A stretch of DNA of 64,000 nucleotides from Prochlorococcus sp. AG-418-I21 (lineage in GTDB: Bacteria; Cyanobacteriota; Cyanobacteriia; PCC-6307; Cyanobiaceae): contig QCMA01000001.1 of NCBI GenBank assembly GCA_003214115.1, forward strand, positions 22,905-86,904, given 5' to 3'. The notes under the pieces were generated by a model. The model saw only the letters and a list, made by a program, of their open reading frames with translations. It ran no database searches and was not told the origin of the DNA. Below are positions 17,819 to 23,975 of this stretch, piece by piece; within the stretch, counting starts at the first letter, position 1; every line of letters starts with the position of its first letter. A program made the translations under genes and the position numbers.

Positions 17819-17893
17819 AAAAAATATTAATTAAAAATGTTCTTTATTACTTTTAAGTCTAAAGTTAAATATATTATTTTCTAGATTGAAAAA

Positions 17894-19750
17894 GTGAGCA
17901 ATTATATCCTTGGTTTATCTTGTTACTACCATGATAGTGCCGTTGTCCTGATAAAAAACGGAGAAATAGTTGTAGCAGTTCAAGAAGAAAGATTTTCTAG
18001 AAAGAAGCATGATTCTAGATTTCCAATAAATGCAATACGATACACTCTTAAATCGCAAAATATTGACTTAAGAGATATTGAAATGATTGTCTACTACGAG
18101 AAACCACTTCTAACTTTTGAGAGATTATTAGAAACATATCTTGCTGTTGCACCTAGAGGATTACGTTCATTTATTGCAGCAATGCAAGTATGGTTAAAAG
18201 AAAAATTATTTCTCAAATCAGAACTTACTCGCAAATTCAAATCCTTACAAAAAGAACTTTTTCCAAATACTAAACCTCATATTCCAAAATTTTTATTCTC
18301 AGAGCATCACCTTTCTCATGCCGCCGCCGCCTTCTACCCTAGCCCATTTGATGAGTCAGTAATACTTTGTATGGATGGAGTAGGTGAATGGGCAACTACG
18401 TCTACATGGGTGGGCAAAAAGAATGAAATTAATCCTCTTTGGGAAATCAGTTTTCCTCACTCTCTTGGTCTTCTTTACTCTGCTTTTACTTACTATTGCG
18501 GTTTCAAGGTTAATTCAGGTGAATATAAATTAATGGGTCTTGCTCCTTATGGAGAACCTAAATATACCAAATTAATCAAAGACAACTTAATTGATATCAA
18601 AGAAGACGGAACTTTCAAACTTGATATTAGTTATTTCAAATATCATCGTGGTTTTCGCATGACGTCAAGAAAATTCGACAAACTATTTGGGAAATCACCA
18701 CGTAAAGGAGAAAGTGAGTTATCGCAGTTCCATATGGATATAGCGGCGTCCATTCAGGCAGTCACTGAAGAAGTTGTACTTAAATTGGCGAGAAGACTTC
18801 GAGAAGAGACAGGTATAAAAAAACTTTGCCTTGGTGGAGGGGTAGCACTTAATTGTGTTGCTAATGGAGTACTTTTAAGAGAAAATATATTTGATAATAT
18901 TTGGATTCAACCAGCGAGTGGAGATGCGGGTTCAGCACTAGGTGCTGCCCTAGTTGGATGGCACCAACATCAAGAGCAGGAAAGAGTTGTTAACACGAGC
19001 GATTCAATGAAAGGAACCTACTTGGGTCCTAAGTTCATGAACGATGATATAACAAACTATCTAAATCAGATTAATGCACCATTTCATACTTACAGTGATC
19101 CAGAATTATTTGAGCGACTAGCAGAGGAACTTGAGAAAGGTCATGTGATTGGTTGGTTTAATGGTCGTATGGAGTTCGGTCCAAGGGCATTAGGGGGACG
19201 CTCCATCATTGGGGACCCTCGTAATCAGAAGATGCAGAGCGTGATGAACCTGAAAATCAAGTATAGAGAGAGTTTTCGTCCCTTTGCTCCATCTGTTCTG
19301 GAAGAAGACGTCAGTAATCAATTCGAGATGGATGTCAAGAGTCCTTACATGCTTCTGGTTGCACCAGTCAAAAAAGAACTCTGTAAGCAGATGACAGAAG
19401 AGGAAGATAAACTCTTTGGAATCGAAAAACTCAACATCCCACGGTCTTCACTACCAGCAATAACTCATATTGACTACTCAGCAAGGGTTCAAACAGTAAG
19501 CAAAACCACGAATCCTCGCTATCACAACTTGATTAGTGCATTTAAACGAAAAACTGGATGCCCCACCATCGTTAACACATCATTTAACGTGAGAGGAGAG
19601 CCCATTGTGTGCACTCCTCAAGATGCATACAGATGCTTTATGAGGACAGAAATGGATATATTGGTTCTTCAAAATCAAGTCCTCTTTAAGAGAGAGCAAC
19701 CAAAGGTTGAAAAAGATGAAACATGGATGCAGGAGTTTGAACTAGATTGA
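17894..19750 (+). CDS. O-carbamoyltransferase, NodU/CmcH/TobZ family (SxtI-like)
   Basis: YYHDSA, EERFSRKKH, EHHLSHAA, MDGVGE, EYKLMGLAPYG, GGVALNC, EFGPRALGGRS, KYRESFRPFAP, SARVQTV, NTSFNVRGEPIV. GTG start. Confidence 0.95.
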   Translation: MSNYILGLSCYYHDSAVVLIKNGEIVVAVQEERFSRKKHDSRFPINAIRYTLKSQNIDLRDIEMIVYYEKPLLTFERLLETYLAVAPRGLRSFIAAMQVWLKEKLFLKSELTRKFKSLQKELFPNTKPHIPKFLFSEHHLSHAAAAFYPSPFDESVILCMDGVGEWATTSTWVGKKNEINPLWEISFPHSLGLLYSAFTYYCGFKVNSGEYKLMGLAPYGEPKYTKLIKDNLIDIKEDGTFKLDISYFKYHRGFRMTSRKFDKLFGKSPRKGESELSQFHMDIAASIQAVTEEVVLKLARRLREETGIKKLCLGGGVALNCVANGVLLRENIFDNIWIQPASGDAGSALGAALVGWHQHQEQERVVNTSDSMKGTYLGPKFMNDDITNYLNQINAPFHTYSDPELFERLAEELEKGHVIGWFNGRMEFGPRALGGRSIIGDPRNQKMQSVMNLKIKYRESFRPFAPSVLEEDVSNQFEMDVKSPYMLLVAPVKKELCKQMTEEEDKLFGIEKLNIPRSSLPAITHIDYSARVQTVSKTTNPRYHNLISAFKRKTGCPTIVNTSFNVRGEPIVCTPQDAYRCFMRTEMDILVLQNQVLFKREQPKVEKDETWMQEFELD

Positions 19751-19752
19751 TC

Positions 19753-20145
19753 ATGAAAGAAATAATTTCAAAAAAACAACTTCAAGAGTTTGGACTTTTA
19801 ATTGGATTTGGATTCCCATTATTGATTGGTTGGTTGATTCCTTCACTCACGGGTCATGGATTTAGGGCATGGACTCTATGGGTCGGATTTCTAGGATTAA
19901 TATCTGGAATCATCTTTCCACGTTCTCTATACTATCCATACAAGTTTTGGATGAAACTCGGTCTTACACTTGGATGGGTTAATAGCAGAATTATTCTTGG
20001 TCTTGTATTCATAATTGTTCTTCTACCAATTTCATTTGTAATGCGTCTTATTGGATATGATCCATTACGAACTAAACTAAAAAAAGTTAAGACTTATAGA
20101 GAAAACCGAAAAAATCATAAAACAGACCTCACTCGCATTTTTTGA
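19753..20145 (+). CDS. SxtJ-family membrane protein
   Basis: KKQLQEFGL, TM helices, WMKLG..LGWVNSRIILG, GYDPL. ATG 2 bp after the carbamoyltransferase stop (track uses TTG 19747). Confidence 0.85.
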   Translation: MKEIISKKQLQEFGLLIGFGFPLLIGWLIPSLTGHGFRAWTLWVGFLGLISGIIFPRSLYYPYKFWMKLGLTLGWVNSRIILGLVFIIVLLPISFVMRLIGYDPLRTKLKKVKTYRENRKNHKTDLTRIF

Positions 20146-20148
20146 ACT

Positions 20149-20310
20149 ATGGAAGCATTTTTTGATCTCGCTAAAGACATTTGGGACTTTATGAAGGTTC
20201 GAAAAAAGTACTGGTTAGCACCTTTGATTATCACGATTGTCTTAATGGGAACTCTTATTGTATTTACACAGGGTTCAGTAGTTGCACCCTTTATTTACTC
20301 TATTTTCTGA
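20149..20310 (+). CDS. 53-aa single-TM peptide, SxtK/DUF5989-like (not in ORF track)
   Basis: Manual translation MEAFFDLAKDIWDFMKVRKKYWLAPLIITIVLMGTLIVFTQGSVVAPFIYSIF*; RKKYWL.P and APFIY..F signatures; 3 bp after the previous stop. Confidence 0.9.
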   Translation: MEAFFDLAKDIWDFMKVRKKYWLAPLIITIVLMGTLIVFTQGSVVAPFIYSIF

Positions 20311-20316
20311 TAAGGG

Positions 20317-21399
20317 ATGAGTCCTCGCTCATTAATCAAAGTTTTCCTTGTGAATCTCACCATACTGGGGATACTTCTTTTATGTGGAGAATTTGGATTT
20401 AGACTTCTAAGGTTTGCAAGAAGTTGTAAGATAACTTGTGATTTCTCATATCTTTCTATAATTACAAGTAGTCAGAGAAACAAATGGAGCCATGGAATCA
20501 GCAGGTTCAGTCAAGTTTTAGGTTATGAACCCAATAGCGATCTGAATCTTGTTATTAATGCAGTTGGTTGGAAAGATATTAAGGTATCGACTGATAGCAA
20601 TGGATTTCGAAATTCGAATCCAAACCCTGCTGCCAATTTCAAGATACTTACTGTTGGAGACAGTTACACTTTTGGAGACCAGGTTTCTGATAGTGACACC
20701 TGGCAAGCATGCCTGAACAAAAGGTTTAAAGATTATGAATTTGTGAATGCAGGTGTATTTGGATATGGCACACACCAAGCTCTATTGCGTTCTCAAGAGA
20801 TAATAAAAGAGAACCCATACAAATACGTAATTCTGCAAACACTTGTTGGAGAGAACTTTAAACGCGACCAATTAGACATTAGATCAGGTTTCGTGAAACC
20901 TTATTTAAAAAAATCTAATGGAAATATAGTTTTATCACCTCCCCCTCCTAGAAGCACCCCAAATACTAAGTATGGTCCACCTGAGATTTCGCTTGCAGAT
21001 TACCTCTTGGCGAATATAAGATTACTAGAAAAAGTCCCTCAGGCAAGCGGTTACCATTTCAATGCCTTTAGTAAAGTGAATGGAACTATTAACAGACGCG
21101 GAATAGACAGTGCTACTATTGAGGAAATTATCGAGCAAACAGTAAATTCTTCGACAACCCGAAGTATGCCCTTCATCTGGTTACTGCAATACAGAAGTAA
21201 AGTAGATCAAAATACTCTCAACGAAAGGAAGATTATCATAAGTAAACTTAAAAGCAAAAACATTGCGTTCATAGATACATTTAATGTTTTGCACATAAGC
21301 AAAATGTACTCCAAAGATCAATTATGGCGTGGTCATCACACCCCACTGGGCAACAAGATTGTGTGCCAGGAAATAGCTAGTCACTTAGAGTCACTTTAA
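20317..21399 (+). CDS. Membrane-anchored SGNH/GDSL hydrolase-fold protein (SxtL-like position)
   Basis: N-terminal TM (VFLVNLTILGILLLCGEFGFR), SNGFR, VGDSYTFG (block I), NAGVFGYGT (block II), GHHTPLGN (block V His). Confidence 0.85.
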   Translation: MSPRSLIKVFLVNLTILGILLLCGEFGFRLLRFARSCKITCDFSYLSIITSSQRNKWSHGISRFSQVLGYEPNSDLNLVINAVGWKDIKVSTDSNGFRNSNPNPAANFKILTVGDSYTFGDQVSDSDTWQACLNKRFKDYEFVNAGVFGYGTHQALLRSQEIIKENPYKYVILQTLVGENFKRDQLDIRSGFVKPYLKKSNGNIVLSPPPPRSTPNTKYGPPEISLADYLLANIRLLEKVPQASGYHFNAFSKVNGTINRRGIDSATIEEIIEQTVNSSTTRSMPFIWLLQYRSKVDQNTLNERKIIISKLKSKNIAFIDTFNVLHISKMYSKDQLWRGHHTPLGNKIVCQEIASHLESL

Positions 21400-21433
21400 T
21401 TAAATGTTGGCATATAAAATTCAAATCCTTATT

Positions 21434-21568
21434 TTAATTTCGAATCGTTAAGATTAAATCTATACTTGCTAACTGTTTTTCTTCGTCAATTTCCTGATAT
21501 TCCAGAAGAACGGAAGAGATTTGTGAACTGAAATCACTGAATTTCTCTTCAGAAAGCTCTATGCTAAA
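21434..21568 (-). pseudogene. Possible gene fragment without a start codon
   Basis: 44 open codons FSIELSEEKFSDFSSQISSVLLEYQEIDEEKQLASIDLILTIRN*, preceded in frame by TGA; no ATG/GTG/TTG. Confidence 0.3.
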
Positions 21569-21874
21569 TCAATTTAATTAATTGACTGCGGTCAAAATTT
21601 TCTTACCAAACAGAAATCCCAATTCCAAATATTAGAGTTAAAAATAATTTCTTCCCGTTAAATCCTTATGATTAATCTTAAAGATCCTTAGAATATCTAA
21701 ATTTGAAGAGTAAGGAACGTCCACTGACCTTTATGTACTAAGTTCAAAAAGTAATCGCTATGTTTACCTTAGTCATTAAGCTATGCGTTAATTAGTGATC
21801 ACTATGAATTAGGTTTAAATAATATTTTTATCCACGACAATCGCTTAGAACGTACTCTCTGAATGCGTTATCTC

Positions 21875-21926
21875 TACCCACCATTTTTACTCCAGATATT
21901 CGTTTTACCAACCAATTTACCCACCA
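21875..21926. repeat. Three TACC(C/A)ACCA direct repeats, integrase arm-type-like
   Basis: TACCCACCA 21875-21883, TACCAACCA 21906-21914, TACCCACCA 21918-21926. Confidence 0.7.
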
Positions 21927-21944
21927 GTTTGTTGACTTAATATT

Positions 21945-22040
21945 GAACCGGTGTGAACTTGTAAGAACCTCATATTCGGGCATCAGTAGTAATATTAATA
22001 GATCTGAATCTTCAGCGAACTTTTATAAACTTCCACGAAC
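21945..22040. repeat. Two arrays of 10-bp-phased GAAC motifs
   Basis: GAAC at 21945, 21955, 21965; GAAC/AAAC/GAAC at 22017, 22027, 22037. Confidence 0.5.
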
Positions 22041-22050
22041 CAAATAATTA

Positions 22051-22139
22051 CGGAGAGGGAGGGATTCGAACCCTCGACAAAAGTTACCTCCTGTAACTCC
22101 TTAGCAGGGAGCCGCTTTCAACCACTCAGCCACCTCTCC
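22051..22139 (-). tRNA. tRNA-Ser(GCT)
   Basis: GGAGAGG/CCTCTCC acceptor stem, GCTCC-CT-GCT-AA-GGAGT anticodon arm, long variable arm, GGTTCGAATCC; CCA not encoded. Confidence 0.97.
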
Positions 22140-22200
22140 AGTTCTTATACATTATCAATTTTTTTGCAAACATTCAAAATTTTTTATTTAATCGAAATGT

Positions 22201-23400
22201 CTAATCAACTTGAACTCTCGGCAATCTATTTTTAAAAGAACAAAGAATTTCCCAAGGTATAGTATTAGATTTTCTTGCCCATTCAAGAGGAGAAATTGTT
22301 TTATCTCCATCAGATCCTAGTAATACCACGGTACTACCAACTTTAATTTCACTTGAACCTGTTATGTCCACCATCATTTGATCCATAGTTATGGATCCAA
22401 CTTGGGGATAAAGTTTATCATTATGTATAACGTTTATCTTTCCTGAAAGATTTCTTGGTACTCCATCTGCGTATCCAATACTTAATACAGCTAAATTTGT
22501 TTTTCTATTACTTACAAATTTTCCTCCATAACTTACACCAACACCTGGATCAATAGTTCTAATAAAAGCTACTTTAGCTTTCAAAAATAAAGCTGGTTTA
22601 AGTGATAAATTTTTATCTATTTTGTCAAAAGGACGGTATCCATACATAGAAAGCCCAACACGTACCATGTGAAAATGAAAATCTTTGTTAATAAGCATTC
22701 CCGCAGAATTAGCCAAATGAATCTTAATTTCATTATTTCGATAAAGATTAATTTGCTTTAATAATTCATTAAACTTCAGTCTTTGTAGTTGTGTAATACT
22801 TTTAGGATCTAATGCGTTATCTTCATCTGCAGAAGATAAATGACTATATATTCCTTCTATTAAAATGTTCTCAAAAGATTTTATTTTTTCAAATTGCTGA
22901 ACAAATTTATTATATTCAAATCCTAATCTTGACATTCCCGTATCAACTTTAAGATGTAAGAGAAATTTCAATCCAAATTGCTTACCAATGTTATTGCAAA
23001 TTAAACATTCTCTTATACTACTGATAGTTGGCATAAGATCATTTTTAAAACATATGATAAGGTCTCTTTTCGTATAAAGATTTCCGAGGATAAGTATTGG
23101 TTTTTTAACTCCTGAAGAACGAAGCTTAATGCCTTCATTTAATGTGGCAACCCCTAATTGAGATGCTCCACCTTTGATAGCATACTCTGATACTAATTTC
23201 GCATCATGTCCATATCCATCAGCTTTAACGACTGCCATAAATTGACAATTTTTGCTTAATTTTGATCTTAACTGTCTAACATTTGTTTCTATTGCTTTAC
23301 CTTTAACTTCAATCCATGCTCTTTGTTTTAGATCTATATCTTTTTCAAAATTTGGAAATTTGTCAAAATTAAATACCTGATTTGTTTGCCTATTTTGCAT
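22201..23400 (-). CDS. alr: Alanine racemase
   Basis: AVVKADGYGH (PLP Lys), HLKVDTGMSRLG, GYADG, TMDQ. Confidence 0.96.
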   Translation of the reverse strand: MQNRQTNQVFNFDKFPNFEKDIDLKQRAWIEVKGKAIETNVRQLRSKLSKNCQFMAVVKADGYGHDAKLVSEYAIKGGASQLGVATLNEGIKLRSSGVKKPILILGNLYTKRDLIICFKNDLMPTISSIRECLICNNIGKQFGLKFLLHLKVDTGMSRLGFEYNKFVQQFEKIKSFENILIEGIYSHLSSADEDNALDPKSITQLQRLKFNELLKQINLYRNNEIKIHLANSAGMLINKDFHFHMVRVGLSMYGYRPFDKIDKNLSLKPALFLKAKVAFIRTIDPGVGVSYGGKFVSNRKTNLAVLSIGYADGVPRNLSGKINVIHNDKLYPQVGSITMDQMMVDITGSSEIKVGSTVVLLGSDGDKTISPLEWARKSNTIPWEILCSFKNRLPRVQVD

Positions 23401-23468
23401 TAACTTTGCACAAATATATGCGCTTATTGAAATATACAGTTAGCATGACATGTAAATTGTATTTTGGC

Positions 23469-23975
23469 ATGGGCCAGACTCTAGTTTTAAATGCATCTTA
23501 TGAACCTTTAAACATCACTTCCTGGCGAAGAGCAGTAATTTTGATGATTAAAGGTAAAGCAGAAAGCTTAGAGGAAGATAAAACATATTCAATTCATAGC
23601 GGGAAAAAGTTGCCTACAGTTATAAGACTTCGTTACTACGTCAAAGTTCCTTTTAGAGAGGTTTCTTTAACAAGAAAAAATATTCTTCTGAGAGATAATA
23701 ATTCATGCCAATACTGTAACTATAGGGGGAGTGACCTATCAATAGATCATGTTTTACCGAGAAGCAGAGGTGGAACAGATAACTGGGAAAATGTTACTAC
23801 AGCATGTCTCAGATGTAATGTTCAAAAAGGTAATCGAACCCCCGAAGAGGCAAATATGCCCTTAAAACGTCGGCCTTATCGTCCATTAAGTAATCTAAAT
23901 TTTGAAGCTACAAGACAAATTGACTCTGGCAAGCATAAAGAATGGAGTAAATACGTAATAGGGGTTGCAATCTAA
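23469..23975 (+). CDS. HNH endonuclease (McrA-like)
   Basis: LVLNASYEPL, RDNNSCQYC, SIDHVLPRSRGG, WENVTTACLRCN. ATG 23469 preferred over the track start 23382, which overlaps alr. Confidence 0.9.
   Translation: MGQTLVLNASYEPLNITSWRRAVILMIKGKAESLEEDKTYSIHSGKKLPTVIRLRYYVKVPFREVSLTRKNILLRDNNSCQYCNYRGSDLSIDHVLPRSRGGTDNWENVTTACLRCNVQKGNRTPEEANMPLKRRPYRPLSNLNFEATRQIDSGKHKEWSKYVIGVAI

Follow-up and report, generated by a model that had tools for sequence, protein, structure and literature searches.

The locus described here raises the question of what a 53-residue membrane peptide does when it ends like a known acyl shuttle but is encoded beside a carbamoyltransferase instead of a membrane-bound O-acyltransferase (MBOAT). 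It lies in a stretch of 64,000 nucleotides from Prochlorococcus sp. AG-418-I21 (GCA_003214115.1, contig QCMA01000001.1, positions 22,905 to 86,904 of the forward strand), which we call the window and whose internal positions are used below. The peptide, here named K, is a DUF5989 protein resembling SxtK and is the third product of a co-oriented block that reads O-carbamoyltransferase, SxtJ, K and SGNH protein. Since K is partnered with a carbamoyltransferase instead of an MBOAT, it is likely to be a carrier of carbamoyl groups to cell-surface sugars. The features of the block are as follows.

17894..19750, + strand: class III (TobZ/GdmN/NodU-type) O-carbamoyltransferase of 618 aa, with H13, H138, H142, D161 and D344 conserved
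18104..18220, + strand: helical hairpin of this enzyme (residues 71-109), the predicted K docking site, overlapping the equivalent of GdmN acceptor-pocket helix 1
19747..20145, ATG at 19753, + strand: SxtJ-family membrane protein (PF19588) with helices 7-33, 40-54 and 56-100 and no invariant polar residue; likely scaffold
20149..20310, + strand: K microprotein, 53 aa, DUF5989 (SxtK-like), with an amphipathic helix (~2-17), RKK, a hydrophobic helix (~22-40) and an uncharged 12-residue tail
20290..20310, + strand: FIYSIF-stop motif, with the codon of Tyr50, the proposed carrier residue, at 20296-20298
20317..21399, + strand: SGNH/GDSL protein of 360 aa with Ser116, His340 and a hydrophobic anchor at the N-terminus; the module that varies between cassettes

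K is a membrane microprotein of the DUF5989 family

Translation of 20149-20310 gave the architecture claimed in a preliminary description of the locus, namely an amphipathic N-terminal helix (hydrophobic moment 0.53), the basic stretch KVRKK, one hydrophobic helix (best 19-residue window starting at residue 22, hydropathy 2.27), the linker QGSVVAP and a terminal FIYSIF-stop. Basic residues lie on the N-terminal side, as had been claimed, with a mean of 4.6 lysine or arginine residues before the helix and 0.04 after it. K is a real gene under selection: compared with 12 picocyanobacterial alleles, differences at codon positions 3, 1 and 2 number 298, 83 and 20, with 252 synonymous and 85 non-synonymous codons. 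The label "unannotated" holds for the open reading frame track only. The protein itself matches Pfam DUF5989 (PF19451; E 9.5e-25, 86.8 bits against a gathering cut-off of 27) and its RefSeq homologues are called "DUF5989 family protein", so that K belongs to a known family with no assigned function. This family comprises 3585 clusters at 90% identity and 2654 representatives at 50% identity, the latter number being inflated by mis-called starts. A profile search of PDB sequences with K returned nothing below E 1.3, and a search of the ESM Atlas returned DUF5989 clusters only, with no model among them.

The frame drawn in place of K in the open reading frame track had been called spurious, and we agree.

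20181..20402, + strand: overlapping 73-codon frame, spurious, not a gene; no family matches, broken in alleles

It has no match in Pfam or NCBIfam, and in the 12 picocyanobacterial alleles it runs into stops or diverges past the K stop codon. A scan for promoters and terminators gave signal at or below chance. In some of four metatranscriptomes, of which a small share of each run was covered, contigs from relatives span parts of the enzyme, SxtJ and K genes; this is coverage alone and does not establish transcription.

The terminal FxYxxF motif is nearly invariant

Our first genome scan used a pattern that included the tail and gave 80 GTDB loci. Because such a set cannot measure conservation of the tail, the alignment was built without the last 12 residues, and a metagenome scan blind to the tail then yielded at least 597 matches, at least 521 of them confirmed. 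We used the best 80 by N-terminal similarity, of which 2 end before the stop, leaving 78 complete homologues. F-[IV]-Y-x-x-F-stop ends 75 of these 78, the tail being exactly 12 residues after the helix, and the remaining three apparently reflect two frameshifts and a lost stop codon. A variable tyrosine or terminal phenylalanine had been named among the observations that would defeat the preliminary interpretation. Within this best 80 of at least 521, the tyrosine is present in 75/75 in-register tails and both phenylalanines are likewise invariant. A set anchored on SxtJ in another phylum agrees: K is found at 27 of 29 loci, always ending in FIYxxF, and the other two loci are cut by contig ends (30 loci were returned, and one from an unpublished genome was left out). 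When all loci are pooled, in a set partly biased towards the tail, the motif is kept in 206/210 distinct K sequences. Among the 2149 ATG-started open reading frames of at least 40 aa in the K-bearing genome itself, one ends in FxYxxF-stop, and this is K. At one locus (L296:3028-3183) a divergent K, with a divergent enzyme and SxtJ alongside, ends in FVYPFF; the APFIY context is gone and F-x-Y-x-x-F is kept.

The same motif, FXYXXF, is termed an "acyl shuttle" in excerpts of PMC12148441 and PMC13653941, according to which the tyrosine of DltX and PatA first receives the acyl group and then passes it to an SGNH serine. It terminates most of the AlgI-type MBOATs that we fetched, with the tyrosine invariant in 28 aligned tails, so the earlier statement that AlgI/PatA-type MBOATs end in a similar motif was borne out for most of them; the annotated DltX record of S. 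aureus does end in FIYNEF, as had been stated. K has the invariant terminal FXYXXF after a membrane helix that characterizes Tyr shuttles.

A carbamoyltransferase accompanies K and an MBOAT does not

Across the 80 GTDB loci, which by record title span more than a dozen phyla, SxtJ is encoded in 77 and the carbamoyltransferase in 75. Among 60 relatives, which are kin and hence not independent, K occurs in 9/10 genomes carrying the window-type enzyme clade and in 0/50 without it. In five genomes the enzyme has no K within 9 kb; each of them encodes both K and SxtJ elsewhere. The lid motif is absent from five carbamoyltransferases of other clades (30-40% identical), and neither J nor K lies near these. 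In one genome without K, a carbamoyltransferase of a different clade adjoins an SGNH gene (G002:C6:23122-25653).

The reported absence of an MBOAT was confirmed, none being found in the window locus or in the K-bearing genome itself (67.8% complete). An MBOAT profile that recovers all 30 control loci matches 1 of 212 K loci scanned. Tyr shuttles are defined by an MBOAT that loads the tyrosine; of 50 K-bearing genomes, many of which are incomplete, 28 showed no MBOAT and 22 have one, and the window's own genome showed none. No MBOAT appeared among 187 of ~518 neighbour clusters scanned against Pfam. Frequent in these are glycosyltransferases, nucleotide-sugar epimerases, initiating transferases and genes of Wzy type, and housekeeping genes make up many of the neighbours. 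The 120 longer-protein matches to K list no MBOAT domain either. Apparent J-K and K-enzyme fusions among the longer proteins were set aside, three having W at window-type TGA stops and others fitting lost stops or frameshifts. A single in-frame fusion of enzyme and SxtJ occurs in a complete cyanobacterial genome (L292:3329-5584). The loader of K is likely to be the adjacent carbamoyltransferase and not an acyltransferase.

The enzyme and K have mean pairwise identities of 61% and 60% across many phyla; the values are 30% for SxtJ and 21% for the SGNH proteins. Such a pattern is as expected if the acceptor of the enzyme is K itself. Seven Prochlorococcus alleles resemble the window at the DNA level up to the K stop codon and no further. 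By sequence, the cassette is a constant core (enzyme, SxtJ and K) with a variable SGNH end that is swapped directly past the K stop.

Of the SGNH proteins neighbouring K, 63/71 have an N-terminal anchor, and their profile also matches genes beside AlgI-type MBOATs. The tie of K to the SGNH gene is less close than that to the enzyme and SxtJ. At one locus where K is split from the enzyme and SxtJ (L321), it stays with an SGNH gene. An SGNH gene lies elsewhere in the genome in 22 of 23 K genomes without an adjacent one, but such genes are common in control genomes too. Within Prochlorococcus, it is present in 7/8 SxtJ-positive and 3/28 SxtJ-negative genomes. In filamentous cyanobacteria (L020, L022-L024, L026, L028, L031, L033 and L036), three to five tandem SGNH paralogues of two subtypes, with GDS or GGS at the nucleophile, follow one enzyme-J-K core, as if one carrier fed several acceptor-specific enzymes.

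K is predicted to bind the enzyme and SxtJ

The enzyme has the PF02543 and PF16861 domains (Kae1-like and YrdC-like) of class III O-carbamoyltransferases and a predicted fold like those of GdmN, NovN and TobZ (Foldseek E ~1e-45 to 1e-40). H138, H142, D161 and D344 are invariant in 70 enzymes, and H13 in all 58 rows covering that position. Its predicted structure includes a helical hairpin at residues 71-104 (predicted local distance difference test, pLDDT, 89.9); residues 70-105 are near-invariant across phyla, and K70, P71, F75, R77, P87 and W100 are invariant in 70/70 enzymes. Excerpts of PMC9633730 describe helix 1 (E85-E98) of GdmN as lining the acceptor pocket and His27 as the base; these align with residues ~71-85 and His13 of the window enzyme.

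A three-chain model of the enzyme and SxtJ with K as partner scored 0.69, and the best of three controls 0.01. The 0.69 mark is reached by 116/157 solved and 2/215 mismatched pairs, a calibration that applies only roughly here because we used our own alignments and three chains. When the enzyme was replaced and SxtJ kept, the score fell to 0.01. The runs agree in at least 69% of contacts, with a partner pLDDT of at least 73. The confidently predicted contacts of K involve its residues 2-45 and are made with enzyme residues 72-109 and with SxtJ, there mainly at 78-97 and 128-130. K residues 46-53, the tail, are outside the confidently placed set, which by the tool's own terms denotes uncertainty and is evidence neither way. 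The model places the K N-helix on the side of the enzyme, in agreement with the charge bias around the K helix. As no solved K relative was found by sequence, the model is not evidently the recall of a known structure. These predictions support binding of K to the enzyme and SxtJ, with docking on the helix equivalent to GdmN acceptor-pocket helix 1. Covariation between SxtJ and K, analysed over 203 pairs with an effective number of 149, singled out one strong pair, J129-K10 (z 7.6), which is compatible with the model, open to phylogenetic bias and silent on the tail.

SxtJ itself is modelled as two membrane helices and one 45-residue helix. Because it has no invariant polar residue, it is likely to be a scaffold and not a substitute for an MBOAT; a fold search with SxtJ gave no match at Z >=8 and generic helices only.

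A proposed carbamoyl relay and its alternatives

We regard as somewhat more likely than not a relay in which the enzyme carbamoylates Tyr50 and Tyr50 hands the group to the membrane-anchored SGNH protein for transfer to a surface glycan. By the established chemistry of the family, whose catalytic residues are conserved here, the enzyme converts carbamoyl phosphate and ATP to carbamoyl-AMP. Its hairpin (72-109) is predicted to dock on the K N-helix and the start of the hydrophobic helix, with SxtJ bracing the rest of that helix. The uncharged 12-residue tail may then fold back into the membrane, where Tyr50 would reach the acceptor pocket and become a Tyr-O-carbamate. By analogy with DltX/DltD and PatA/PatB, the tail would swing to the outer face and carbamoylate the SGNH serine, from which a hydroxyl of a sugar would receive the group. 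Activation and membrane crossing would fall to the constant core, and the choice of acceptor to the interchangeable SGNH protein. Towards a serine nucleophile an aryl carbamate acts as an activated donor, and the series from carbamoyl-AMP through Tyr carbamate and Ser carbamate to sugar carbamate would therefore be chemically downhill. Extended to the family, the proposal makes DUF5989 proteins the carriers in a trans-membrane acyl relay that works without an MBOAT. SxtJ and the microprotein would clamp a soluble carbamoyltransferase to the membrane, the enzyme would load the tyrosine, and the hydrophobic tail would flip across the bilayer to interchangeable SGNH transferases; this extended proposal stands in our estimation at an even balance.

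Several observations weigh against this relay. An SGNH gene is in the fetched flank of only 43/80 GTDB loci (33/54 of those with full flanks), and its presence genome-wide discriminates weakly, being found in 19/20 SxtJ-positive and 13/20 SxtJ-negative genomes of one phylum. The window SGNH protein is without the Asp of the usual D-x-x-H block, and among solved structures the SGNH profile finds its best match over the full length in CgnD (E 8.6e-13), which excerpts of PMC10070186 characterize as a slow peptide hydrolase. One genome (G026, 99% complete in 140 contigs) has the enzyme, SxtJ and an SGNH protein, and K was not found in it. Because SxtJ is without a catalytic-type invariant residue or a tunnel-like size, the tail itself must cross the bilayer, and we know of no such crossing for DltX or PatA. 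Carbamoylation of a surface glycan has, moreover, already been attributed to the carbamoyltransferase WapO in Pseudomonas (excerpts of PMC8005017), and the excerpted part of its gene table names no SxtJ or DUF5989 gene.

Some of these points would be accommodated if K and SxtJ merely held the enzyme at the membrane, the FIYxxF tail being a structural or docking element that is never modified, and if the enzyme directly carbamoylated a lipid-linked sugar or small acceptor on the cytoplasmic side of the membrane, as has been suggested for WapO and NodU. The confident model contacts (K 2-45) suit an anchor equally well, all solved homologues of the enzyme act directly on their acceptors, no SGNH gene is in the flank at 37/80 loci, and G026 retains the enzyme and SxtJ without a detected K. 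We nevertheless regard this anchor-only reading as unlikely, if worth serious consideration, since it leaves unexplained a fixed Tyr (not Phe), both Phe and the exact stop in 75/78 tails (of the best 80 of at least 521), the copy of a proven acyl-shuttle motif (PMC12148441, in excerpt) and a near-invariant acceptor-pocket helix across phyla with different glycans. Direct action on strain-variable glycans would predict a variable acceptor pocket, and the near-invariance of residues 70-105 counts against it.

Tyr50 might instead carry the carbamoyl group without the tail ever becoming periplasmic, the K helix lying obliquely, the acceptor facing the cytoplasm or lying within the membrane, and the SGNH protein serving as an optional accessory. 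SxtJ, modelled with one 45-residue helix, may be re-entrant because its segment 80-97 has basic residues on both sides (mean lysine and arginine 2.9 in 57-79 and 4.6 in 98-115), K packs antiparallel along the SxtJ helix in the model, and the K tail is uncharged and hydrophobic. The 19-residue hydrophobic stretch and charge bias of K, however, fit an ordinary helix with the N-terminus inside and the C-terminus outside, and SGNH genes are repeatedly adjacent and can remain with K alone; we judge this arrangement improbable. About equally improbable, in our judgement, is the idea that the K tail acts as a pseudo-substrate by which the SGNH protein is recruited or regulated, and that the SGNH protein removes carbamoyl groups, the role proposed for SxtL (excerpts of PMC2679770 and PMC3037375). 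Most PDB matches of the SGNH profile are hydrolases, and the DltX tail also binds the esterase DltE (PMC13653941, in excerpt). Against this, those papers put the role of SxtL forward only as a proposal still to be tested, the loss of sxtL together with sxtI in L. wollei (PMC3037375, in excerpt) fits a transferase equally, and the SGNH profile also matches AlgX, AlgJ, PatB1 and PatB, more weakly than CgnD, and genes beside MBOATs. A possible link to genes named "cgnJ/cgnK" in the crocagin cluster was dropped, as the main text of PMC10070186 contains no such names.

Genomic setting and distribution of the cassette

In the window the cassette occupies an insertion next to a tRNA gene.

17844..22041, no strand: insertion of ~4.2 kb at the 3' end of tRNA-Ser(GCT), absent in 4/5 relatives examined, the fifth having other DNA there
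22050..22140, - strand: tRNA-Ser(GCT) flanking the insertion

The insertion lies between a HAD gene and tRNA-Ser(GCT); four of the five relatives join 17843 to ~22042, and this empty form also appears as loose ends in 3/4 metatranscriptome runs. K is present in 7/36 genomes of the genus, many of them incomplete. In one relative (G016) the flanks are 94% and 90% identical to the window, but the three core genes only 77%, which suggests replacement of the allele. Other Prochlorococcus carry the cassette at other sites, and one complete genome (G015, L314) has two complete cassettes within 8 kb. The window is Prochlorococcus-like in its psaA/psaB genes and in close matches that bear the name Prochlorococcus. 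It also contains, at 23382-23975 (+), a stand-alone HNH endonuclease gene adjoining alanine racemase, whose weak IscB/Cas9 matches reflect the HNH domain only and are far below the cut-off.

Outside the cyanobacteria, the J-K-enzyme block is on chromids of Sinorhizobium/Ensifer (L247 and L249; 38/45 plasmid records matched), where L247 has two SGNH genes nearby; these bacteria are a tractable host for genetics. One planctomycete locus has two K copies in tandem (L078:7815-8156), and a complete Latescibacterota chromosome has a lone K amid housekeeping genes (L074:8009-8162). Viral contigs gave no match to the single K protein and three loci with the K alignment, one of them full-length (L233:5947-6135, on an IMG/VR viral contig); on another (L234) K adjoins a carbamoyltransferase. 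With only three viral loci, K as a phage gene family was rejected.

Comparison with known systems

The name DUF5989 is absent from the literature searched, and no proposal of such a relay was found in that literature, which covered few subscription papers and excluded supplements. If the relay exists, it would let an activated group cross the inner membrane with neither an MBOAT nor an AT3 protein involved, in a large family that shares its terminal motif with known shuttles and is tied to a different chemistry and a different loader. Surface glycans of Prochlorococcus, SAR11 and numerous uncultured phyla would then be expected to bear carbamoyl groups, a variable trait encoded at a tRNA insertion site and one on which phages or grazers plausibly exert selection. 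O-carbamoylation of such glycans outside the cytoplasm would be a common but overlooked modification among marine and soil bacteria. SxtJ and SxtK, long-standing "unknown" genes, would gain functions, and SxtL-type proteins would be recast as transferases.

Like K, DltX of the DltB-DltX-DltD system for D-alanylation of teichoic acids (PF12459) is a stand-alone gene product of ~50 aa with one hydrophobic helix, a basic N-terminal side and FXYXXF at the very C-terminus; DltX works with an SGNH protein, which is a putative partner for K. Kinship with DltX was not supported by sequence: none of 76 K members matches PF12459 at E<=10, and the profile comparison suggested at that stage gave K against DltX a probability of 34.5%, with a DltX profile of 24 sequences of Staphylococcus/Listeria type only. 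The earlier interpretation therefore stands in part, for the architecture, the invariant motif, the absence of an MBOAT and the basic N-terminal side, and kinship with DltX is the part without support. DltX is, in addition, encoded with DltA, DltB, DltC and DltD, that is, with an MBOAT and a carrier protein, whereas the neighbours of K are a carbamoyltransferase and SxtJ. The DltX tail is polar and acidic (mean hydropathy of the last 12 residues -0.98, two charges), in contrast to the uncharged, hydrophobic K tail (+1.47, no charges), with MBOAT tails at +0.16. K is found in Gram-negative bacteria and other phyla, and its predicted loader is a soluble carbamoyltransferase.

The shuttle of AlgI/PatA-type MBOATs, which work with AlgJ/PatB-type SGNH proteins, shares with K a peripheral helix, a membrane helix, a short linker and FIYxxF, and its loci have similar anchored SGNH neighbours. 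The tails of 28 AlgI-type MBOATs were the best profile match to K (81.9%, pairwise E 1.1e-5), and DltX against the same tails gave 27.1%, a level that the match of K to DltX does not better. The match to K drops to 24.8% with the last six columns removed, and shuffled K prefixes score 10.4-18.8 against 25.1 unshuffled. Because the match falls without those columns, the likeness amounts to a membrane helix plus motif. By sequence, K differs from the DltX family, and common descent with the MBOAT tails is not shown. The AlgI/PatA tail, unlike K, is fused to the MBOAT, which uses a His to charge the tail with an acyl group drawn from acyl-CoA by way of a tunnel, and MBOAT/SGNH pathways other than Dlt are without a DltX-like microprotein according to excerpts of a 2025 paper (PMC12148441).

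The sxtI-sxtJ-sxtK-sxtL block of cyanobacterial saxitoxin clusters has the same order and gene sizes as the window block; excerpts of PMC2679770, PMC2684587 and PMC3037375 list sxtJ and sxtK as unknown and SxtL as a proposed decarbamoylase. From published gene order and size, SxtK may be a DUF5989 protein. No further sxt gene was found among the window open reading frames scanned around the cassette, and the K block, unlike the saxitoxin clusters, is widespread amid glycan and housekeeping genes. TobZ, GdmN, NovN, VtdB, NodU and WapO, finally, are class III O-carbamoyltransferases with the same fold and catalytic residues as the window enzyme; the solved ones act directly on small molecules, whereas in the window clade a hydrophobic hairpin is conserved, onto which a microprotein is predicted to dock. 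Comparative evidence argues strongly, and structural modelling moderately, for the K system as a putative variant of the Tyr-shuttle relay in which a carbamoyltransferase replaces the MBOAT.
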